Source of the DNA: a virus
Lineage: Duplodnaviria; Heunggongvirae; Uroviricota; Caudoviricetes
DNA length: 22,421 nt
Virus record (IMG/VR): IMGVR_UViG_2724679538_000008
Location: 1-22,421 of that record
Strand: one strand, 5' to 3'
Part shown: piece after piece, positions 1 to 21,390 of the stretch
Layout: each line of letters opens with the position of its first letter
Numbering within the stretch: position 1 is the stretch's first letter
The notes under the pieces: model-generated
Databases searched by the model: none
The model's input: the letters and a program-made list of their open reading frames with translations, nothing else
What the model was told of the DNA's origin: nothing
Position numbers and translations under genes: made by a program

Positions 1-1161
1 TTACCTCGCATTTAAGTAAACTACGTTCTCCTCTTGTGCCGTATTTGTGCCATTGCGACTTATAATCGCATCGATTTTGCTCGCGTGCTCGGTGAGATGC
101 CCAGCTGAAAGGTGGGCGTATCTTTGAACCATTTCGAGAGTTTCCCATCCTCCCATCTCTTTAAGTGCAAGAAGAGAGACACCGGACTGAACCAGCCAGC
201 TTGCCCAGGTATGCCTCAGGTCATGGAAGCGGAAGTTGCTAATGCCTGCCCGCTTTAACGCTCCCTTCCATGCCTTGTTGCTGTCGGTTCTCATCTTCCT
301 TACCGCTGCTGTTTTTGTTCCGTCGCTTCGGTAGGCAGGTTTGGTGTGGACAAATACCCATCTCTTATGGAGCCCCTGCTGTTTTCTTAATATCTGGCAT
401 GCGGTTTCGTTAAGAGGAACTCCGATCGCATTGCCAGCTTTTGTTTCATCAGGGTGCATCCATGCCATTTTCTTATCCAGATCGACCTGTGACCACTCAA
501 GGTCTGTAACGTTGGAACGACGAAGGCCTGTCGTGATTGCAAACATGACCACAGGGAAGAAATGAGGAGCAATTTCTGCAAACAGGCGCTTCGATTCCTC
601 CTCTGTAAGCCATCTGATTCGTCCATTCTTAACGCGTGGTGTTGATATTTTGGGCGCCCTGTCAAGCCATCCCCATTCAACAGCCATATTGAGAATAGCG
701 CGAAGTATTGCCAGATGCCGCGTCTTCGTTCCTTTGCTTGCCAGCTTTGGTTTATACTCCGGCACTGGCTTGCCAAGCCGCAAACACCTATCCCGGCTCA
801 TCTCCCAGTTCAGGCGATGGCGGCGGTTTTCCATCCCGTCTACCGCCTCCATTATTTTTTCTGTTGTTATGTCAGAGAGAATGGTTTCTCTGAAGTGCAA
901 CATCCAGAACGATATAATGCTCTTGTCATCATCAATGGACTTCTTATCCGATTTCTCACGCAGCCACCGTATGCAGGCTTCCTTGAATAGCTTTTTCGGT
1001 GATTCCCCGAGATTTTTTACTCTCCACGCTTCTGCTTTCAGACGATCGTGAAGTTCTTGCGCTTGCCTCTTGTCCGATGTTTCAAGAGAGCGTCTAACTC
1101 TTGATCCATCTGGCGCGACGAAATCGCAGTGCCATGTGCCACCGCGCAGTTTGATTGACAT
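1..1161 (-). CDS. int: Phage integrase, tyrosine recombinase
   Basis: 386-aa ORF; C-terminal catalytic region 'FHDLRHTWASWLVQSGVSLLALKEMGGWETLEMVQRYAHLS' (R..H..R..Y tyrosine recombinase signature). Stop codon at the window edge, as expected for the gene next to the attachment site. Overlapped at its 5' end by an excisionase-like ORF. Confidence 0.9.
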   Translation of the reverse strand: MSIKLRGGTWHCDFVAPDGSRVRRSLETSDKRQAQELHDRLKAEAWRVKNLGESPKKLFKEACIRWLREKSDKKSIDDDKSIISFWMLHFRETILSDITTEKIMEAVDGMENRRHRLNWEMSRDRCLRLGKPVPEYKPKLASKGTKTRHLAILRAILNMAVEWGWLDRAPKISTPRVKNGRIRWLTEEESKRLFAEIAPHFFPVVMFAITTGLRRSNVTDLEWSQVDLDKKMAWMHPDETKAGNAIGVPLNETACQILRKQQGLHKRWVFVHTKPAYRSDGTKTAAVRKMRTDSNKAWKGALKRAGISNFRFHDLRHTWASWLVQSGVSLLALKEMGGWETLEMVQRYAHLSAGHLTEHASKIDAIISRNGTNTAQEENVVYLNAR

Positions 1162-2151: not shown

Positions 2152-3216
2152 TTAAGTTGATTCCAGACTTCCTTTGGTAAAAGCTTGTATCAGTCTGTTT
2201 GCTGCTGCTTTCTGCGCTGCCACATTGGCAATAACAGATAGTTTTTCCTGGCTGGCTTTCGTGCAGATCCCCGCCCAGTTATCCATCAGAAAAAAATCCT
2301 CTCTTTCTGCAGAGCTGGTAGTTGCACATAGTTTTTCGATCATAGAAGTTATTTCTGCGATGGAATGATTAACCATCATCTGTTGAACCGCAAAACCGAA
2401 AGCGTTAATCATTACTCCATGGAACTGAATATAATCGCGCTTGTACGTAGCGTGGTGTACACCATGTCGGATTGAGTCAATCTGAGTTAGTGTAATCCAT
2501 GCCTCCCAGACAGATTCTATATATCCCATTTCAAGTTGTTGATTGCCGTTCCTAGCGAACTTTGACGTTGCATCAGTGAGTGCCTTGAAACTCACCCACA
2601 TATTACTTTTTAATGGCACTACGTTGTGTTCAAAATCGGTTATATCGGCAAATACAGTATGTTGGGTCAGGAAGGATATCATTCCCTGAGCAATATCATC
2701 CCGGCCGTTATACGCCATATTGATGGTCGCTGATGGCTTAGAAACGTTGTTATTTATGTCCGAAAAGAACTGCTGCCGGGTTTTTAGCGGCAGATTCATT
2801 GTAAGCATCATGGGAACCATGAGTGTTGATGGGGAACTTCGGCAAAATATCTCAATGCCAGCTGCACGATGTTGACCATCAAAAAGTTTTATTTCGGCGT
2901 CGAGGGGAATTCTGGCTATACCAACATTTGTGTTGCCAAACGGTACAAATTCTATATTCGAATCACAGTTACCTACGAGAGGGGGAATGATAAAAGGCTC
3001 ATTTCTTGAGTCTGCGTTAGTGAGATAATTTAAAAATTTTCGTACTCGATTTGGATTAATTTCTCGCTGAGAGCGTTCCAGTGTATGGCCGTAATTATCT
3101 GAAGCGAGGAAACGAGCCAGCGATCTTCCTGGTATGGTAAGGAAGAGTGTAACAGTACCACCCTGTACACCTTGCGATGCCGGAAATTCGAATGAATGAT
3201 TACCAACCTGACTCAT
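2152..3216 (-). CDS. DGQHR-domain protein (DndB/DpdB-like, ParB-like fold family), stand-alone
   Basis: 354-aa ORF containing the literal motif 'KLFDGQHRAAGIE' (DGQHR). Strong SD 'CAGGAGGA' 6 nt upstream of the ATG. The start overlaps the stop of an upstream 54-aa ORF (ATGA). Confidence 0.75.
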   Translation of the reverse strand: MSQVGNHSFEFPASQGVQGGTVTLFLTIPGRSLARFLASDNYGHTLERSQREINPNRVRKFLNYLTNADSRNEPFIIPPLVGNCDSNIEFVPFGNTNVGIARIPLDAEIKLFDGQHRAAGIEIFCRSSPSTLMVPMMLTMNLPLKTRQQFFSDINNNVSKPSATINMAYNGRDDIAQGMISFLTQHTVFADITDFEHNVVPLKSNMWVSFKALTDATSKFARNGNQQLEMGYIESVWEAWITLTQIDSIRHGVHHATYKRDYIQFHGVMINAFGFAVQQMMVNHSIAEITSMIEKLCATTSSAEREDFFLMDNWAGICTKASQEKLSVIANVAAQKAAANRLIQAFTKGSLEST

Positions 3217-5894: not shown

Positions 5895-6743
5895 TTATGC
5901 TGATTTTTTAGTATGTCTACTATTATATTTTTCTAGCAGATCTGCTAACTGATCTTCTTTTGGTGGTCTAGGGAGATTGTTTCTTACATTGCTTCGCTTC
6001 TGAGCTTCAGCTATTCGATCACCAAAGTATCTTTTGAAGATCTCGTATTCTGCACAGTTTTCCGGATCTACATCATAAAATGATAACTTGCCGTAAATTG
6101 CACAAAACCAGTCAGCGCATTGAATTGTTTGGTATAGTTTACTGTCTACTTGTACAGGGGCTTCAAGCAATTGATACTTCTCTTCTTGATGCATTTCATA
6201 GATTGCTTCTTTAACAATCTCGCTTCTCATTTCATGATCGTCCATGAAAATCAAGAATTGAGCATCTTGATTTTTGAACTCATTGTCTAGCCGTTTTATT
6301 ACTTCTTTAAAGCTTGATTTATAAGTTCGTTGAGGGTTATGAGATGCAACACCAATGCGTTTAGCTTCTCCTACGTAGAAAAGAAAGCCGCCATAACGAG
6401 TAATAGTGTTAATTATTCTGTTTGTGCTTCTTGTTAAGTATTTTTTGTACTGTGTTAAATTTTTTACAGAATACTGTTTGGAACCTTTTTTCTCCCAACA
6501 TGACAACTGGAAACGCTCGCCCTTAGCTTGTGCCTTTCTTCTGGCTTCTGGTATGTCATAAGAACCGAACAGTTGTTGCTTATGCTTGAAGAAGAAATGA
6601 GAAAAATCTCTTACTCTATTGGCTGGTAGGACGAATCCACCAAGCCCAAAAACTGGATGTGTATTATGCTGAGGATGTTTCTTGGAAATGTACGGGCCAT
6701 CATGACCAAACTCATCCAAGTAAACTATGAATATATTTGACAT
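5895..6743 (-). CDS. DUF3800-like protein in the rexAB position (downstream of cI, same strand)
   Basis: ORF track 5895..6758; the likely start is the second ATG (6743), preceded by 'GGGGCAAGG', giving 'MSNIFIVYLDEFGHDG...'. The N-terminal '[IV]Y[IL]DE.G' type start is what I recall for DUF3800. AT-rich relative to the flanking lambda genes. Confidence 0.5.
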   Translation of the reverse strand: MSNIFIVYLDEFGHDGPYISKKHPQHNTHPVFGLGGFVLPANRVRDFSHFFFKHKQQLFGSYDIPEARRKAQAKGERFQLSCWEKKGSKQYSVKNLTQYKKYLTRSTNRIINTITRYGGFLFYVGEAKRIGVASHNPQRTYKSSFKEVIKRLDNEFKNQDAQFLIFMDDHEMRSEIVKEAIYEMHQEEKYQLLEAPVQVDSKLYQTIQCADWFCAIYGKLSFYDVDPENCAEYEIFKRYFGDRIAEAQKRSNVRNNLPRPPKEDQLADLLEKYNSRHTKKSA

Positions 6744-6916
6744 TACCTTGCCCCACATACACGGAAGCCCGACTTAAAAAAGCCGGGCCCCGGAATCAGC
6801 AGCAGAAGAAGGTTAAATCTCCCGCCTCTTGTGTTTAAGTATCAGAGAATGTCATCAAAAAGTCAATATGTGTTATGGGAAAATATTACTCAAATACCTC
6901 ATCAGAACACGGCTGA

Positions 6917-7606
6917 TTATCCGTGTTTCCTATACGTCTGCGGCATACTGCCAATAACCTTCCCGAAGATAAACACTCGGTTCATCTCGTCTTTCTCGAT
7001 CGGGTCCCACGGTGAGTAGCTCTTGTTATCAGAGATGACCAGCAGCTTATCCTTCATCATTTGCAGGCGCTTTACATGGGCTGTGTCGTCGTACAGAAAC
7101 GCATAGATACCATCACCGTCGAAAGATTTAACAGTGATATCAACGAACAGCAGATCACCTGGTTCGATCGTTCCTGACATGCTGTCACCACGCACGTTAA
7201 TGATGCGGATATTTTCCGCCTTCCTACCATCGAACATGTGACGAGCATCGTCAAATGAGTACTCAACCGAGCGTAGAACTTCTACAAACTCACGGTTGAT
7301 GACTCCCGGCCCAGCACTGACTTCTATATCAAGAACGTCAATCTTGAAGTATTTGGAATGGCTGACAGTTGATTGTATTGGTTGCACTGTACTGTCTGAC
7401 ATATTTCCAACGCCAGAAGATAACCATTCTGCGCGCACACCCAAAGCGTTCGCGATCTCCACGATTTTAGTTGTTTGGTTAGCTTTCCCTGTTTCGATTT
7501 TCTGAATAGCAGCCTGGCTAACCCCAACCAAATCCCCAAGTGCCTTTTGTGTAAGGCCTCGCGCTAATCTGGCTTCTTTAAGTCTTTCTGAGAGTGTTGT
7601 TTTCAT
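6917..7606 (-). CDS. cI: CI-like prophage repressor (HTH_XRE N-domain + S24/LexA-like peptidase C-domain)
   Basis: 'MKTTLSERLKEARLARGLTQKALGDLVGVSQAAIQKIETGK' HTH followed by a C-terminal region with '...VRGDSMSGTIEPGDLLFVD...' (S24 Ser/Lys autocleavage-type domain). ORF track starts at 7672; the Met at 7606 gives the canonical N-terminus. Divergent from the cro-like gene. Confidence 0.85.
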   Translation of the reverse strand: MKTTLSERLKEARLARGLTQKALGDLVGVSQAAIQKIETGKANQTTKIVEIANALGVRAEWLSSGVGNMSDSTVQPIQSTVSHSKYFKIDVLDIEVSAGPGVINREFVEVLRSVEYSFDDARHMFDGRKAENIRIINVRGDSMSGTIEPGDLLFVDITVKSFDGDGIYAFLYDDTAHVKRLQMMKDKLLVISDNKSYSPWDPIEKDEMNRVFIFGKVIGSMPQTYRKHG

Positions 7607-7647
7607 AGACCAAATGTACAACCAAGGTTTTATTCCATCAAACGAAA

Positions 7648-7672
7648 ATGGTTGTTGACTAAAAACAACCAT
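7648..7672. promoter_or_regulatory. OR-type operator palindrome within the cI-cro divergent promoter region
   Basis: Perfect inverted repeat ATGGTTGTT-gactaaa-AACAACCAT. It overlaps a TTGACT -35-like hexamer (7652-7657) facing cro. A further GGTTGTT lies at 7704-7710, next to the cro RBS. Confidence 0.55.
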
Positions 7673-10930: not shown

Positions 10931-12349
10931 TTAGAAAATAATGTTTGCTATATCCGAGATAGCATTTAAAGAACCTCTGTGGTCACTTCCTGTTTTAGGT
11001 AAAATATAGGAATATCGAGGGTCTTCATTATATGTTAACTTCCAGTGTTTTCCATCGCTTGACGCACTGAAACCTAAGTCCTTTAAATTTCTTTGTGTTG
11101 CGCTATCCATGCTTCTGTAACCTGTTAAAGTCCTTTTAAGTAATTGGCGGCGACTCTCGGTTTCTTTATTGTATTCATTATTGGCAATTAGGGATGATAA
11201 GATATGGTAGCTTCTACCAAATTCATTTTTATTTTTTATGGCAGTTTTTAGTGCGTCAATAATTATATTTTTGATTTCTCCATCAAAAAAGTCAGTCTCT
11301 TCACCAGCATTAAGCACAATGCTTCCTTGGGCTGAAGCTTGTGATTGAAGAGTGCGTACTCTGTGCTCTAAAGAGGAGATCTTATGCTTAAGATCTTCTA
11401 TTTGGTCATCTTTCGCAACATTATCGGCTTCGTAAAGCGCCATCAGTTCGCGTGTGTATTCTCCTCTTTCTTTGAGTGAGTTAATAGAGTCTTTCGTTTT
11501 TCTGGTTTGTATCTCACTCCATCCACTATCTGAGACAGGAGCCATTGTAGTCGTAGCTCTTACAACATCATCAAATAACTCATCTTCAAATTCTTTTGCG
11601 GTTTTCTCACCACGGCGATAAAAACTGATATTTTGACCCCGTGGCCAATAGATACCAACAGCACCAGCATAGGCATTTTTAGCATTTGTCTCATTTTTTA
11701 GCTTAATAGAAAATAGTCTATTGCTAGGCTCAATTAATACATGTGCTAATCCGCATACCTTTCTTGCAAGGCGTTCTGGGATGATATTGTGAGCATGTTC
11801 ATTAAAAAAATACTTGGAGCTAACGTATATTATTGGTAGTCTGTTGTCAGTTTCACCATTTATAACTTTAGCTGCTATATTTAAATGTTCATCAGTATCA
11901 TCTAAGGAATGAGGTTCGACTGACACCTTGAAAATATCATCAAGACCACCAGAAAATTTATCAATCAATCTCATAACAACTAATGGTTTCTTAGGTTGCG
12001 GGGCTAGATAAGCTGCATCTTGGCTTACAACGCTAGATTCCACCTGAATCCACATGGTATCAGTTTTGAGATTTTTATTAATTGAAATATCTGTTACCCA
12101 TTTGTGTGGCTCAGATATTTTCGAATACCTAAAACAGCCTAAACTAGTATCTTTGTTTTTATAAGTTATTATATCAATTCTTTCATTTTTAGACTCTATG
12201 AAGTACTCCTCGCTTTTATAATCACATACTAATTGTGCTGGAATAAAAGTTGTATGTGGTGAGTCGTTTACCCAAGAAAAACATTCATTAAAGATCTCAG
12301 CTAGAGATGTGGAGTTTGAAACATAAAAACCAGTTGAGAAATATTTCAT
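10931..12349 (-). CDS. Large orphan protein (472 aa), AT-rich, no recognisable domain
   Basis: Long uninterrupted ORF on the strand opposite to the early-right operon. Visibly lower GC than the flanking lambda genes. Central predicted coiled-coil ('ELMALYEADNVAKDDQIEDLKHKISSLEHRVRTLQSQ'). No Walker A or other motif I can name. Confidence 0.7.
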   Translation of the reverse strand: MKYFSTGFYVSNSTSLAEIFNECFSWVNDSPHTTFIPAQLVCDYKSEEYFIESKNERIDIITYKNKDTSLGCFRYSKISEPHKWVTDISINKNLKTDTMWIQVESSVVSQDAAYLAPQPKKPLVVMRLIDKFSGGLDDIFKVSVEPHSLDDTDEHLNIAAKVINGETDNRLPIIYVSSKYFFNEHAHNIIPERLARKVCGLAHVLIEPSNRLFSIKLKNETNAKNAYAGAVGIYWPRGQNISFYRRGEKTAKEFEDELFDDVVRATTTMAPVSDSGWSEIQTRKTKDSINSLKERGEYTRELMALYEADNVAKDDQIEDLKHKISSLEHRVRTLQSQASAQGSIVLNAGEETDFFDGEIKNIIIDALKTAIKNKNEFGRSYHILSSLIANNEYNKETESRRQLLKRTLTGYRSMDSATQRNLKDLGFSASSDGKHWKLTYNEDPRYSYILPKTGSDHRGSLNAISDIANIIF

Positions 12350-15961: not shown

Positions 15962-16046
15962 AGTCAGAGATAACAATCAACTAATACTGTTTTGTTGATT
16001 TTTGCTTGTAATTGGCGTTCTGGTCTGAGTTTTGTGGAGTAAGTTG

Positions 16047-16424
16047 ATGCGTGATATTCAGATGGTTCTTGAGCGTTGGGGAGCGTGGGCGGCTAATAAT
16101 CATGAAGATGTGACCTGGTCGTCCATTGCCGCCGGTTTTAAGGGATTAATTCCTTCAAAAGTAAAATCTCGCCCACAATGTTGTGACGATGACGCGATGA
16201 TCATTTGCGGGTGCATGGCCCGTCTGAAAAAGAACAACAGCGATTTGCATGATTTATTGGTGGACTATTATGTCGGCGGCATGACTTTTATGGCGCTTGC
16301 ACGTAAGCATGGGCGATCTGATTGTTGGGTTGGCAGGATGCTCCAGAAAGCTGAGGGCGTAGTGGAGGGTATGCTGATGGTGTTGGATCTCCGATTGGAG
16401 ATGGATGCTGATTGTTCGAAATAA
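16047..16424 (+). CDS. Q: Late-gene antiterminator Q (QuuD/phage 82-type)
   Basis: '[81 protein letters not shown]...' matches DLP12 QuuD-type Q as recalled. GGAG lies 7 nt upstream of the ATG at 16047 (ORF track begins at a TTG at 16032). Confidence 0.85.
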
Positions 16425-16522
16425 TTAAAGGAAAAGTTGCTGTCTGATTGTCATTAGTCTAACATTTTAAATGTTGGAATCGCAACGTAGTTATTATCAT
16501 ATAACAGCTTGTTTCCTGATTT

Positions 16523-16551
16523 AGCCAGCCTCCCCAAAGGCTGGTTTTTTC
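16523..16551 (+). terminator. Rho-independent terminator downstream of Q (tR'-like)
   Basis: CCAGCC-uccccaaa-GGCUGG followed by UUUUUU, about 100 nt after the Q stop, where lambdoid phages place the PR' transcript terminator that Q-modified polymerase reads through. Confidence 0.7.
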
Positions 16552-16578
16552 TAATAAGTATTATTTCGAGTAGGGATT

Positions 16579-17103
16579 TTATTGTTTAACCCATAATAAT
16601 TCATTGACATTGAATCCCAACTTTTGAGCGGTTCGCACATAGTCTGCTTTTACTTTATCTGGAATAGTTGGGGTCCTTGCCAGAATCCATAGGTATTCTC
16701 TGTTCGGACCACTGACAAGAGCATACTTATACTCATCATCCAGTTTGATTACATTATAGCCACCATAGAAGGGGCCAAAAAACGAAACCTTCAACGCTGC
16801 AGTTTTAGTATCTCCAGTAAAGTATGCTTTACCTTCGCTCTCGCTCCATTTATTTTTCGTTGGATCGTATCCACGGTTAAGTACACGAATCCCTCCGTCG
16901 TTCCGTTTTCCATAAGTAGCGCTGACCTGTTCCAGACCACGTTCGAACCGGTTCTCGAGGCGAGCTATTTCATACCATTTTCCGAGGTAGCGGTTGGCGT
17001 CAAAATTTGTAATCGGCTGCACACCTTTAGGTGGTGTCGGGGCCTTACATGCTATAAGAGTGAAAGAGAGTGCAATGCCAGTCAACACAGGCCATAACTT
17101 CAT
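16579..17103 (-). CDS. Bacterial lipocalin (Blc-like outer-membrane lipoprotein)
   Basis: 174-aa protein with signal peptide and lipobox 'LIAC'. 'FDANRYLGKWYEIARLENRFERGLEQVSATY...GKAYFTGDTKTAALKVSFFGPFYGGYNVIKLD...YLWILARTPT' closely parallels E. coli Blc. Confidence 0.85.
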   Translation of the reverse strand: MKLWPVLTGIALSFTLIACKAPTPPKGVQPITNFDANRYLGKWYEIARLENRFERGLEQVSATYGKRNDGGIRVLNRGYDPTKNKWSESEGKAYFTGDTKTAALKVSFFGPFYGGYNVIKLDDEYKYALVSGPNREYLWILARTPTIPDKVKADYVRTAQKLGFNVNELLWVKQ

Positions 17104-17295
17104 AATAAATCCTGTACTTTTGATAGTTGAGAGTAAGTATGAAAGATAGATGATTACGACCGATCACTTAAAGAACTTTCATACTATATTAGGAATAGTC
17201 CATAACAGAAAAATTGTCAGTGATGACGCCAGAAAGGCAATTTATTCCGTGCACTACACAGTTTATGTGTTAATGAATTAGTCAAGGGGGAGAAT

Positions 17296-18255
17296 ATGAT
17301 AAAAAAACCTGTGATTGGAATCAGCGGTTGTTTGGCCGGTTCTGCTGTTCGTTTTGATGGTGGTCACAAAAGAGCTGACTTTTTAATGGACAAATTAGTG
17401 GAATGGGTAACATTCAGACCAGTATGTCCAGAAATGGCTATAGGGCTGCCAGTTCCGCGTCCTGCTCTACGTCTTGTGCGCTCGACGCAAGGAAATATAC
17501 GGATGTGTTTCAGCCACGACCAGAATGAGGATGTGACAGAGAGAATGACAGAGTTTAGTCGTTCTTATATGGACAAATTAAAGGATGTATCGGGGTTTGT
17601 GGTTTGTGCTAAATCTCCCAGCTGTGGCATGGAGCGCGTGCGTGTCTATGATGAAAATGGTAATCGAGGTCGTAAAGATGGAGTGGGACTATTTACGAGC
17701 ACTTTGATGGAAAAGTTTTCCTGGCTACCGGTTGAAGAGGATGGGCGATTACATGATCCAGTGCTTCGTGAGAATTTTGTTGAAAGAGTTTTTGCTTTGC
17801 ATGAGCTCAATCATCTTTACAAGGAGAAATTATCAAGAAGAGAGTTATTAGCTTTTCATAGTCGTTATAAGCTTCAGTTATTGGCGCATAGTCAGGCAGG
17901 CTATAAAGATATGGGACCATTTGTGGCTGCAATACACGAGTGGGCGGACCTTGAATCATACTTTGAGGTGTATCGTGATAAGCTGATGGCGATTCTCAGA
18001 AAACCTGCATCACGTAAAAATCACACGAATGTGCTGATGCATATACAGGGGTATTTTAGTAACTACTTAAGTACACGCCAGCGTAAAGAGTTGAGCGAGG
18101 TTATACTTAACTATCGTTCTGGCACATTACCTCTTCTTGCGCCGTTGACTCTGCTGAAGCATTATCTGGGTGAGTATCCTAATGATTACTTGCTTACACA
18201 GAATTACTTCGATCCCTATCCGGACGAACTGGCTCTAAGACTGATGGTAAATTAA
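17296..18255 (+). CDS. DUF523 (TudS/YbgA-like, Cys-rich) + DUF1722 two-domain protein
   Basis: N-terminus 'KPVIGISGCLAGSAVRFDGGHKRADFL...PVCPE...CAKSPSCGME' resembles YbgA/DUF523, which I recall as the TudS 4Fe-4S thiouracil desulfidase family. The C-terminal helical half is consistent with DUF1722. SD 'AAGGGGGAG' upstream. Confidence 0.6.
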   Translation: MIKKPVIGISGCLAGSAVRFDGGHKRADFLMDKLVEWVTFRPVCPEMAIGLPVPRPALRLVRSTQGNIRMCFSHDQNEDVTERMTEFSRSYMDKLKDVSGFVVCAKSPSCGMERVRVYDENGNRGRKDGVGLFTSTLMEKFSWLPVEEDGRLHDPVLRENFVERVFALHELNHLYKEKLSRRELLAFHSRYKLQLLAHSQAGYKDMGPFVAAIHEWADLESYFEVYRDKLMAILRKPASRKNHTNVLMHIQGYFSNYLSTRQRKELSEVILNYRSGTLPLLAPLTLLKHYLGEYPNDYLLTQNYFDPYPDELALRLMVN

Positions 18256-18604
18256 TTGTATGCGATATCATCCAAAAGGATAAGTTCCTGCATGCAGGAT
18301 ATTTACAATCGTAAAAACTACACTATGATACCCAGAGTGTCAGTTTGTATAAAAACTCTGTTTACGCTGAAGAAACCATTGAGATGCAACTTAAAGTTGG
18401 TAAACATGCCAGTCAAAATATAATATTATGATTCCACGCAGCTATATATAATATAACAGATTGGTTTAATAATTTGTCTTTGTGAGTTAAATACATAATT
18501 TTATACTTGTGATGCAATGAGATTTTCCTTATTGTTGAACTGGCGAATATTGATTTTCCACCTATACTTACCTGGTGTAACCCCAATGATATCAGGTGGA
18601 TAAT

Positions 18605-19336
18605 ATGCCATACATATGTTCTATCATTTTGGTGTTGAACTCGTTTGATGCCCGAATTGGTAAAGAAGATATTTTGTTTAAAAAAGGAAGTGCTGTTCTC
18701 ATTGATTACAATTTAAAAGATTTTTTTTCATCAAATATAGATCATGTAATGATCGTAGATGTTGAAGAGAAAACAGTTAATGATTTCTTTAAAAGCAACA
18801 CACTCTCACCTTTTTCTGTAAGAAGGTTTTATCCGGCATACTTGATGGTGGAATGTGAAGATTTTTCATTGTTAAAGAACTTGATTGCATGCTTGAATTG
18901 TGATGGCAGAACTGTGGATTTTGTTAGAAATCAAATATCACTTGCATGTCTTGCTATCTTATCTTCAGAGAAAATAGTGCAAAGTTTTTTATTTGGATGT
19001 CTTAATAGTTTAGGAAGTAAAGTTAAGGCTATTATTCACACGGATATATCTGCAGCATGGAGACTTTGTGATATATCTTCAAGACTGTATCTGAGTGAAA
19101 GTCTGTTAAAAAGAAAATTAAAGCACGAAGGCTTATCATTTAGTAAGTTAATTCTTGAAGAGCGAATGGTGATGGCGGAAAGGTTATTAAGCTACAATTT
19201 ATATTCTGTTGGAAAAGTTGCTAAGATATGCGGTTATGAAAATACGTCATATTTTGTAAGTGTTTTCAGAAGATATTTTGGTGTTCCTCCCCATCAATAT
19301 TCATCAAGATTTTTTTTAGAAAAAGACATGATGTAA
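18605..19336 (+). CDS. AraC-family transcriptional regulator (AppY/GadX-like architecture)
   Basis: C-terminal AraC HTH 'WRLCDISSRLYLSESLLKRKLKHEGLSFSKLILEERMVMAERLLSYNLYSVGKVAKICGYENTSYFVSVFRRYFGVPPHQY'. Very AT-rich gene. 'AGGTGGA' lies upstream of the ATG at 18605. Confidence 0.8.
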   Translation: MPYICSIILVLNSFDARIGKEDILFKKGSAVLIDYNLKDFFSSNIDHVMIVDVEEKTVNDFFKSNTLSPFSVRRFYPAYLMVECEDFSLLKNLIACLNCDGRTVDFVRNQISLACLAILSSEKIVQSFLFGCLNSLGSKVKAIIHTDISAAWRLCDISSRLYLSESLLKRKLKHEGLSFSKLILEERMVMAERLLSYNLYSVGKVAKICGYENTSYFVSVFRRYFGVPPHQYSSRFFLEKDMM

Positions 19337-19398
19337 CGTGATGCGTTTTAATGATTTTGTAATTTTCGTATTTGATAATTGTATGATGCTTTCAGCTA

Positions 19399-19429
19399 CG
19401 CCAGAATAATCGCTGGCGTTTTTCTTTTT
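19399..19429 (+). terminator. Rho-independent terminator downstream of the AraC-family gene
   Basis: CGCCAG-aauaaucg-CUGGCG followed by UUUUUCUUUUU. Confidence 0.6.
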
Positions 19430-19524
19430 GAATAGATGTTCAAGCCTTACGCTAATGTAACTTCTATACCTTTCCTCTTCGTTCCGAACCGTGTACACCA
19501 TCCGTTATTTGCGGAGGTGAGGCT

Positions 19525-19740
19525 ATGAAATCCATGGATAAGTTAACAACGGGCATTGCCTACGGCACCTCCGCAGGCAGTGCTGGCTACTGGTTTTTAC
19601 AGCTGCTCGATAAAGTCACGCCCTCACAGTGGGCAGCAATAGGTGTGCTGGGTAGCTTGGTATTTGGCCTGCTGACGTACCTGACAAACCTTTATTTCAA
19701 GATTAAAGAAGATAAGCGCAAGGCTGCGAGAGGTGAATAA
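19525..19740 (+). CDS. S: Class II holin, phage 21 S-type pinholin (dual start)
   Basis: 71-aa protein '[71 protein letters not shown]' with two TMDs and the Met1-Lys2-Ser3-Met4 dual-start motif. GGAGGTGAGG SD. Confidence 0.9.
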
Positions 19741-20237
19741 TGCCTCCATCATTACGAAAAGCCGTTGCTGCTGCTATTGGTGGCGGAGCAATTGCTATAG
19801 CATCAGTGTTAATCACTGGCCCAAGTGGTAACGATGGTCTGGAAGGTGTCAGCTACATACCATACAAAGATATTGTTGGTGTATGGACTGTATGTCACGG
19901 GCATACAGGAAAAGACATCATGCTCGGTAAAACGTATACCAAAGCAGAATGCAAAGCCCTCCTGAATAAAGACCTTGCCACTGTCGCCAGACAAATTAAC
20001 CCGTACATCAAAGTCGATATACCGGAAACAACGCGCGGCGCTCTTTACTCGTTCGTCTACAACGTGGGTGCTGGCAATTTCAGAACATCGACGCTTCTTC
20101 GCAAAATAAACCAGGGTGATATCAAAGGCGCATGTGATCAGCTACGGCGCTGGACATACGCTGGCGGTAAGCAATGGAAAGGTCTCATGACTCGTCGTGA
20201 GATTGAGCGTGAAATCTGTTTGTGGGGTCAGCAATGA
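19740..20237 (+). CDS. R: SAR endolysin (phage 21 R-type lysozyme)
   Basis: N-terminal Gly/Ala-rich signal-anchor-release segment '[20 protein letters not shown]' followed by a lysozyme domain ('...[26 protein letters not shown]...'). Start overlaps the holin stop (TAATG). Confidence 0.9.
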
Positions 20238-20692
20238 ACAGAGTAACCGCGATTATCTCCGCTCTGGTTATCTGCATCATCGTCTGCCTGTCATGGGCTG
20301 TTAATCATTACCGTGATAACGCAATCGCCTACAAAGAGCAGCGCGATAACAAGGCCAGTGAACTGGAGAAGGCGAACGCCACCATCGCTGACATGCGGAA
20401 GCGTCAACGTGATGTAGCAGAACTCGACGCAAGATACACAAAGGAGCTTGCTGATGCTAACGCGACTATCGAAAGTCTCCGTGCTGATGTTTCTGCTGGG
20501 CGTAAGCGCCTGCAAGTCGCCGCCACCTGTGCAAAGTCAACGACCGGAGCCAGCGGCATGGGCGATGGAGAAAGCCCAAGACTTACAGCAGATGCTGAAC
20601 TCAATTATTACCGTCTACGAAGTGGAATCGACAGGATAACCGCGCAGGTTAACTACCTGCAGGAGTACATTAGGACGCAGTGCTTAAAATAA
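20234..20692 (+). CDS. Rz: Rz inner-membrane spanin (i-spanin)
   Basis: ATG overlapping the R stop (ATGA). N-terminal TMD '[20 protein letters not shown]' then a coiled-coil periplasmic domain. Contains an embedded +1-frame lipoprotein ORF. Confidence 0.85.
20454..20639 (+). CDS. Rz1: Rz1 outer-membrane lipoprotein spanin (o-spanin), embedded in Rz in the +1 frame
   Basis: '[33 protein letters not shown]...' has a signal peptide, lipobox VSAC and a Pro-rich mature part. AAGGAG lies 7 nt upstream of the ATG. Lies entirely within Rz. Confidence 0.75.
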
Positions 20693-20758: not shown

Positions 20759-20901
20759 ATGTCCGCAGTAAACGCGCATCTCACGCGCATATTAACGAGA
20801 GCCTTTCAGTAAGCGGGCCTGAGAATTGCCGTTATAGGTGGCGACCTCTCTCGGGCGGCTTTTCTGTGAGACAGGCTCACTTTCTAAAAGGTAAAGACGC
20901 T

Positions 20902-21390
20902 ATGAACCAATTAGAAGAAAAGCTTCAAAGAATGATTTCCTTATACAAGGAAGATAACTGCCAAAAAGTTCCTGAAAACATCGCAGAGTTAATGGAATTG
21001 GCAAGTGAATTTTCTGGCATGCTTAAGTCGTCAGATGTTCGGTCAGCGTTCTTTGTTGAAATGCTGATGCACGGCGGACTTATGGCAACAATGAGACGTG
21101 TAATGGAAGACCAGAGAAAAGAACCTCCTCAGGTATACGTTTTGTCATCGAAGAAAACTGGGCTAACCAAAATTGGGTATTCATCCAACATTCCACAACG
21201 CATCAAATCGCTTGGCAACTCTGGACCAGACTGTTTGAAGCTTGAGTGCCTGATCCCTGGTGGAAGAGAAACTGAAAACATGCTTCATCGCAAATTTGCC
21301 GCAAAGAGAAAGCACGGTGAATGGTTCGCCCTGTCCAAGGATGACATTGAGGGGTTGAAATCTGTAGCGCTTACTTCTGATGGCTATTAA
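20902..21390 (+). CDS. T5orf172-like (GIY-YIG-related) domain protein with uncharacterised N-terminal region
   Basis: C-terminal half 'VYVLSSKKTGLTKIGYSSNIPQRIKSLGNSGPDCLKLECLIPGGRETENMLHRKFAAKRKHGEWFALSKDDIEGL' fits the T5orf172 pattern (VY.L......KIG.S.N...R...L.....L.L.........E..LH..F...R..GEWF.L). ATG at 20902 is preceded by AAAGG (ORF track begins at a GTG at 20866). Confidence 0.6.
   Translation: MNQLEEKLQRMISLYKEDNCQKVPENIAELMELASEFSGMLKSSDVRSAFFVEMLMHGGLMATMRRVMEDQRKEPPQVYVLSSKKTGLTKIGYSSNIPQRIKSLGNSGPDCLKLECLIPGGRETENMLHRKFAAKRKHGEWFALSKDDIEGLKSVALTSDGY

Follow-up and report, generated by a model that had tools for sequence, protein, structure and literature searches.

The fusion of a TudS domain to a DUF1722 domain was characterized and named RudS by Jamontas et al. 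(Nucleic Acids Res 2024, PMC11417400), who described it as a [4Fe-4S] desulfidase erasing the sulfur of 4-thiouridine (s4U) from intact tRNA. In these enzymes catalysis is centered on the TudS domain and the anticodon region is bound by DUF1722, tRNA binding having been shown for RudS_KT, the Pseudomonas putida protein PP_0741. Six RudS orthologues expressed in E. coli reduced tRNA s4U 4.7- to 26-fold (PMC11417400); among the six is RudS_vir (Escherichia phage 1H12 gp66, YP_009909557), for which s4U removal was shown in vivo, while RudS_KT was active in vivo and also in vitro. Free thiolated bases and nucleotides were also tested and are not the main substrate of RudS enzymes (PMC11417400). 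RudS_vir exhibited lower tRNA activity than other orthologues despite good protein levels, and the shortest lag on 4-thiouracil (PMC11417400), so that its substrate preference may lean slightly to the free base. Overexpression of RudS_KT is reported to shorten the UVA-induced growth delay of E. coli (PMC11417400); endogenous RudS is reported to have no detectable effect under standard laboratory conditions.

RudS_KT and RudS_ST (Salmonella STM1389/ORF319) are chromosomal and under MerR-type control, by LitR with light in Pseudomonas and by MlrB/MlrA in Salmonella, where MlrB and MlrA repress orf319 via an operator overlapping its promoter (bioRxiv 10.1101/2021.03.09.434593). Stand-alone TudS (PDB 6Z92 and related entries) is a single domain of approximately 150-170 amino acid residues, which takes free bases and nucleotides as its substrates and causes no drop in tRNA s4U in vivo. 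By comparison, E. coli YbgA (b0707, ybgA-phr operon) is a stand-alone DUF1722 protein, lacks a catalytic domain and has no effect on tRNA s4U (PMC11417400).

The DNA analysed here, a stretch of 22,421 nt (IMG/VR record IMGVR_UViG_2724679538_000008, hereafter the window), comprises the left-hand part of a lambdoid prophage. It carries genes for an integrase (1-1161, minus strand) and a CI-like S24 repressor (6917-7672, minus strand), an exo/bet/gam region, replication genes, the antiterminator Q, a holin and a lysozyme, in agreement with the original prediction that the gene studied here is prophage-borne. That gene is an ORF running from ATG to stop (319 codons plus stop), which occupies exactly 17296-18255 on the plus strand and has a Shine-Dalgarno sequence rich in purines ahead of it (AAGGGGGAG, 17284-17292). 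RefSeq lists this 960-nt CDS in near-identical E. coli prophages under the name "YbgA family protein." The motifs KPVIGISGCL, RFDGGHK and PVCPE, on which the prediction of a DUF523 plus DUF1722 protein had drawn, are all found in the translation, and the HMM check returned both domains within this single 319-residue ORF, fused in one polypeptide. PF04463 (2-thiour_desulf, formerly DUF523) covers residues 7-149 (17314-17742; E 3.1e-40, 137.9 bits against a cutoff of 34.7), while PF08349 (DUF1722, the tRNA-binding module in RudS) covers residues 192-309 (17869-18222; E 1.9e-40, 138.2 bits against a cutoff of 22.5). Both matches are far beyond chance. Chromosomal YbgA had been placed in DUF523 as well, which is wrong: it aligns only to residues 164-315 of the window protein, at 49% identity. 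Likewise, the NCBIfam YbgA model (PRK10167) scores 190.8 bits, below its cutoff of 237, and covers residues 160-315 only.

To locate the catalytic residues, 61 family sequences, 35-93% identical to the window protein, were aligned. Ser10, Pro45, Glu46, Gly50 and Arg55 are invariant in this alignment, and 57 to 60 of the 61 sequences keep Cys12, Cys44, Cys110, Ser107, Ser109 and Arg19. The predicted first [4Fe-4S] ligand is Cys12 (codon 17329-17331), present in 60 of 61 sequences and aligned to the SACLLG motif of TudS, where it corresponds to Cys10. Cys44-Pro45-Glu46 (17425-17433; 60, 61 and 61 of 61) would supply the second ligand and the catalytic glutamate, aligning with FCPEVA of TudS (Cys43/Glu45). 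The catalytic serines and the third putative ligand lie in Ser107-Pro108-Ser109-Cys110 (17614-17625), aligned to GSPSCG of TudS (Ser101/Ser103/Cys104), with Ser107 conserved in 60, Ser109 in 57 and Cys110 in 59 of the sequences. The invariant Arg55 (codon 17458-17460, 61/61) is the equivalent of the catalytic Arg60 of RudS_KT; its offset of +11 from the second cysteine is identical in that enzyme. Indeed, Glu51, Arg60, Ser111 and Ser113 of RudS_KT, all validated by mutation, are reproduced in the window protein by their offset from the cysteine ligands, and Table 1 of PMC11417400 gives positions Cys12, Cys44 and Cys110 as the cluster ligands of RudS_vir. By alignment and offset, then, the full set of catalytic residues (Cys12, Cys44, Cys110, Glu46, Arg55, Ser107 and Ser109) is present. 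The Fe-S cysteine pattern that had been proposed from the sequence is thus found on proper alignment, each ligand in 59-60 of 61 sequences and each matching its TudS counterpart (Cys10/43/104).

The tRNA-binding residues of RudS_KT can be placed in the same manner. With the P. putida sequence lying outside the alignment, offset alone positions Arg24/Tyr25/Asn26 and Ser243/Arg244 at Arg19/Phe20/Asp21 and Ser239/Arg240 of the window protein; these residues agree with the family consensus at the putative binding positions, namely Arg (60/61), Phe or Tyr (57/61), Asp or Asn (61/61), Ser or Thr (50/61) and Arg or Lys (41/61). One strongly conserved family position deviates in the phage clade, and only one: residue 142 (17719-17721), immediately before the conserved LPVEE motif, is Ser in the phage proteins and Pro in 57 of 59 other RudS proteins. 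This serine might be connected with the weaker activity on tRNA that was reported for RudS_vir.

A profile built from the 61 sequences matches the sequence of TudS 6z92 with an E value of 1.8e-15, the three cysteines, the catalytic glutamate and both serines co-aligning. The AlphaFold2 model of the window protein (pLDDT 95.2, pTM 0.92) leads to the same conclusion: Foldseek relates its N-terminal domain to TudS structures with a probability of 1.0 and a target TM-score of 0.74-0.76, so that the TudS relationship proposed in the original prediction holds at the level of both profile and fold. The N-terminal half thereby shares with TudS the fold, the three-cysteine [4Fe-4S] site and the Glu/Ser catalytic residues, although identity is 26% and TudS possesses no DUF1722 domain. 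The DUF1722 half of the model is all-helical, and the Foldseek search of this model found no solved structural relative for it. A profile match of this half to ribosome-binding factor A (2kzf, E 0.0068) was weak and gained no support from Foldseek; it was treated as noise.

The closest characterized protein is RudS_vir, which, like the window protein, consists of 319 residues and possesses Cys12, Cys44 and Cys110. The two are 93% identical without gaps (92% at the nucleotide level), and the 21 substitutions spare every conserved catalytic position. The gene order of the window, namely Q, blc on the opposite strand, rudS, an AraC-like gene and holin, is found in phage 1H12 too. RudS_KT and RudS_ST share the two-domain architecture and the catalytic residues, and RudS_ST in addition the length and cysteine positions. 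On the evidence of the ORF, the Pfam domains, the identity to RudS_vir and the AlphaFold2 model, the window gene is rudS, encoding a TudS-DUF1722 fusion of the tRNA 4-thiouridine desulfidase class. This is a real but already known enzyme class; since its mechanism and a phage orthologue from the same cassette have been published, the finding is no new kind of system. The suggestion that s4U in tRNA might be the target was correct, because the 93%-identical RudS_vir is among the orthologues found to lower tRNA s4U in E. coli (PMC11417400). The alternative offered with it, nucleotide pools or free thiolated bases, was tested in the same study and is not the main RudS substrate, and the statement that no function is established for the two-domain architecture has been outdated since 2024.

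In the window rudS is the second gene of a cassette inserted between Q and the lysis genes. Q (16032-16424, plus strand; PF06530, E 2.5e-51; RefSeq start at window position 16047) is followed after approximately 100 nt by a candidate tR'-type intrinsic terminator at 16523-16552 (plus strand), a 9-bp GC-rich stem preceding a T run (-19.2 kcal/mol, z -4.1). On the opposite strand lies a gene for a blc-like outer-membrane lipocalin (16579-17103, minus; PF08212, E 7e-44; NCBIfam Blc, 316 bits against a cutoff of 267), separated from rudS by a divergent intergenic region of 192 bp (17104-17295). Downstream of rudS is the third cassette gene (18605-19336, plus; ATG start following RefSeq), which encodes a 243-residue AraC-family, YdeO-like regulator with HTH_18/HTH_AraC domains. 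It matches the YdeO model with an E value of 7.6e-37, although below the cutoff of that model, and belongs to PHROG 1450 ("unknown function"); it is a candidate, and may belong, with the prophage acid-resistance regulators PsrA, PsrB, PatE and AppY. A terminator-like hairpin (19398-19427, plus) separates it from the start of the lysis cassette at 19525-20237 (plus), comprising the holin (19525-19740; PF04971, E 2e-35) and lysozyme (19740-20237; PF00959, E 1e-45) genes. PADLOC returned no defense-system match for RudS, Blc or the AraC-like protein.

The closest complete-genome match to window positions 16000-20300, from Q to lysozyme, is an E. coli prophage at the argU tRNA (DLP12) site. Several prophage backbones carry the cassette, DLP12-like and Qin-like ones among them, and among the phages collected some relatives possess a porin gene in its place. 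The same slot holds nmpC in the DLP12 prophage of K-12 and toxin genes in Stx phages. Two further leads came to nothing. A second tRNA-modification eraser, with an ASCH domain, is annotated in a related prophage (L001), and the window has no such ORF; and the published deletion-primer arms for the serum-resistance genes orf6/orf10 of the APEC prophage phiv142-3 match nothing in the window or in loci L001-L013.

A terminator directly after Q is the classic lambdoid pR'/tR' layout. Located between the antiterminator and the lysis genes, rudS should be transcribed with the late genes, a new if modest observation for this enzyme, drawn from the order of the genes and a single terminator prediction. 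Polymerase modified by Q would pass the terminator at 16523-16552, proceed antisense across blc and then sense through rudS and the AraC-like gene, and cross the hairpin at 19398 into the lysis genes. Expression of rudS would thus be high in lytic growth by Q-dependent read-through, while some promoter would presumably provide for it in the lysogen. A search for a sigma-70 promoter directly upstream of rudS gave none that was convincing; promoter-like matches occur there at background frequency.

From where was the cassette acquired? The nearest chromosomal RudS proteins, from Citrobacter, Serratia, Enterobacter and Klebsiella, are approximately 76% identical to that of the window. In Serratia rubidaea a lipocalin gene (minus strand) is followed by genes for a MerR/MlrA-like regulator and RudS (both plus), and the phage Blc is 77% identical to this lipocalin. 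To survey such contexts, chromosomal rudS loci were scanned using one genome per species, giving 64 loci. Two of these (L066 and L071), short contigs in a MAG binned as "Candidatus Nanosynbacter," carry the E. coli prophage cassette at 94-100% identity, almost certainly as contamination, and were set aside. The order blc, merR, rudS is found in 38 of the remaining 62 species loci. Another 16 place rudS in a CFA-synthase/DUF3833 context, 14 of them matching both genes and two only one; in Citrobacter this is a co-directional series of SnoaL, SDR, amine-oxidase, DUF1365, CFA-synthase, DUF2878 and DUF3833 genes with rudS last. The other eight loci comprise three with blc only, two with merR only and three without any tested neighbor.

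In most of the 38 loci (L024-L077) the lipocalin flanking merR-rudS is 77-82% identical to the window Blc (72% in L069). For reference, the blc-like lipocalin gene lies at 4196-4720 in L008 and L009. Because such lipocalins flank merR-rudS in enterobacterial loci, the pairing of blc with rudS predates phage capture, which hints that Blc is functionally linked to the RudS/light-stress unit. The AraC-like gene, on the other hand, is absent from the chromosomal rudS loci and has a GC content of only ~0.33, from which we surmise that it probably joined the cassette separately.

Every merR-type enterobacterial locus (L024-L077) also possesses a conserved dyad box, approximately ACTTGGACAAA-N9-TTGTGTAAGTTT, situated mostly ~61 nt before the rudS ATG (locus position ~3940). 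Its placement fits the MlrB/MlrA repression described for Salmonella orf319, and we consider it a candidate MlrB/MlrA-type operator, absent from the phage copies. The window has no merR gene between blc and rudS, and the best match to the conserved operator in the intergenic region, 13/23, equals the median of shuffled sequences. Nor does this region align meaningfully with its counterparts in Citrobacter sedlakii (L020) and Citrobacter sp. (L065), two of the three chromosomal loci in which blc and rudS are present and merR was undetected. Probably rudS was captured together with the neighboring blc from an enterobacterial blc-merR-rudS unit, and the MerR-type regulator and its operator are both gone, leaving phage rudS without the control that governs RudS_KT and RudS_ST. 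To our reading this is new; a captured host gene that lost MerR-type control and moved into a phage late operon would make a clean case of regulatory rewiring.

The intergenic region does contain a perfect dyad, AAATTG-N21-CAATTT, at 17211-17243, the sole copy in the window where 0.04 would be expected; one arm is mutated in phage 1H12. It was considered as a relic of an MlrA-type operator and discarded, the match of 14/22 to the published MlrA consensus being reached by 41% of shuffles. Against the chromosomal rudS operator it scores 13/23, which is chance, and as a pattern picked after the sequence had been seen it is a weak lead only. A separate case is found in a Salmonella genome (serovar Derby for this protein), where a rudS gene whose product is 74% identical to the window protein (L006, 6001-6960; L007, 3704-4663) lies between ttcA and uspF, the E. 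coli Rac prophage site, with a single phage-type DUF1367 gene beside it and no blc, apparently the remnant of a different prophage-borne RudS.

E. coli has been said to lack RudS, both in the RudS paper (PMC11417400) and in a 2026 review. This is true of K-12 and BL21 and contradicted for the species: rudS is present in 1136 of 5426 complete E. coli genomes (~21%), with at least 80% length coverage in 1064, a modest but new result. BL21, the expression host of the RudS study, itself possesses the order Q, blc, rudS, with rudS (L011, 4001-4147) cut after 147 nt by IS3; IS elements interrupt the gene in some other strains as well. The window allele is commoner than that of 1H12, with 595 E. coli genomes matching it at 99% identity or more. 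The gene is furthermore carried by 12 sequenced Escherichia phages and, in a scan with a single protein query that returns only near-identical E. coli prophage copies, by 126 IMG/VR viral contigs. In all 80 of the IMG/VR loci fetched, the 319-residue ORF is intact, and 74 of them show the whole order Q(+), blc(-), rudS(+), AraC-like(+), holin(+); in the other six at least one flanking gene escaped detection. Comparison of the window and 1H12 alleles gives dN/dS values of 0.10 for rudS, 0.065 for blc and 0.26 for the AraC-like gene; rudS is under purifying selection. Because so many genomes carry the gene, what K-12 or BL21 teaches about tRNA s4U, the UVA growth delay and UV disinfection may fail for many natural isolates.

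One critical question is what the enzyme does in this setting. We think it very probable that the gene encodes an s4U-erasing RudS, held in a fixed blc-rudS-AraC-like cassette, transcribed late and freed of MerR control. The steps that follow are carried over by homology from RudS_KT and, as regards activity in vivo, RudS_vir. The TudS domain would hold a [4Fe-4S] cluster on Cys12, Cys44 and Cys110, the fourth iron being free to take the sulfur of s4U, and Glu46, Ser107, Ser109 and Arg55 would complete the conversion of s4U to U. The helical DUF1722 domain would dock RudS onto intact tRNA at the anticodon arm, for which reason s4U8, rather than free thiouracil, is the presumed substrate. Having lost the near-UV-sensitive s4U8, tRNA would form fewer s4U8-C13 crosslinks; less of it would be left uncharged and the UVA-induced growth delay would be shorter.

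The catalytic domain being a TudS homologue, the phage enzyme might instead serve mainly in TudS-like salvage, desulfurating free 4-thiouracil, 4-thio-UMP or the nucleotide pool, and the short 4-thiouracil lag and seemingly lower tRNA desulfidation of RudS_vir (PMC11417400) point in that direction. We regard this as quite unlikely: a uracil auxotroph was rescued by TudS and by no RudS likewise, all RudS proteins including RudS_vir lowered tRNA s4U where stand-alone TudS did not (PMC11417400), and the tRNA-binding DUF1722 domain has been kept under purifying selection. Loss of the cognate regulator and operator, the want of a clear sigma-70 promoter upstream and the IS insertions in BL21 and other strains could also be taken to mean that rudS is an inert passenger, a captured chromosomal fragment roleless for phage and lysogen and possibly unexpressed. 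Such a gene would hardly show a dN/dS of 0.10 and an intact ORF in 80 of 80 viral contigs, nor be present over 80% or more of its length in 1064 of the 5426 complete E. coli genomes; it has also kept all predicted catalytic residues and a good Shine-Dalgarno sequence, and lies in the path of the late transcript. This explanation strikes us as barely credible.

If, as we prefer, the enzyme erases s4U from tRNA, its beneficiary must still be sought. It may be the host only, rudS, blc and the AraC-like gene then acting in lysogenic conversion to give stress- or UVA-tolerant lysogens with no role in lytic growth. The classification of blc as a frequent moron of intestinal lambda-like coliphages (PMC6969025) is consistent with this, as are the shorter UVA growth delay on RudS_KT overexpression (PMC11417400) and the Salmonella rudS that has a solitary phage-type gene beside it at the ttcA/Rac site, an arrangement suggesting that rudS outlasted a decaying prophage. 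However, the place and orientation of rudS between Q and holin would make its late transcription unavoidable too, and roles in lysogen and lytic cycle are not mutually exclusive; we judge a benefit to the host only to be a serious possibility, at somewhat less than even chances. That the phage itself profits is more doubtful. UV or sunlight induction would in that event flood the cell with an s4U eraser during late expression, host tRNAs would stay chargeable, and near-UV growth delay and the stringent response would be averted while late proteins are made. The position of rudS in the late operon raises precisely this question, whether erasing a tRNA modification is of use to a phage when UV induces it, and were it so, roughly one E. 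coli strain in five would depart from K-12 in its tRNA s4U dynamics and tolerance of UVA.

The window contains other genes of note. A DndB/DGQHR-domain protein (2152-3216, minus strand; Pfam E 3.8e-46, PADLOC DndB E 4e-37) is encoded in the early-left region, where no further dnd genes were seen close to it. An island of 35% GC, lying between the replication genes and the antirepressor, holds an ORF of 472 residues (10931-12349, minus strand), which has no Pfam match and a weak PADLOC match to the candidate defense protein HEC-07 (E 1e-9). Two further genes look like accessory insertions, one for a DUF3800 protein adjoining the repressor gene (5895-6758, minus strand) and one for a T5orf172/MUG113 (GIY-YIG-like) protein after the Rz gene (20866-21390, plus strand).
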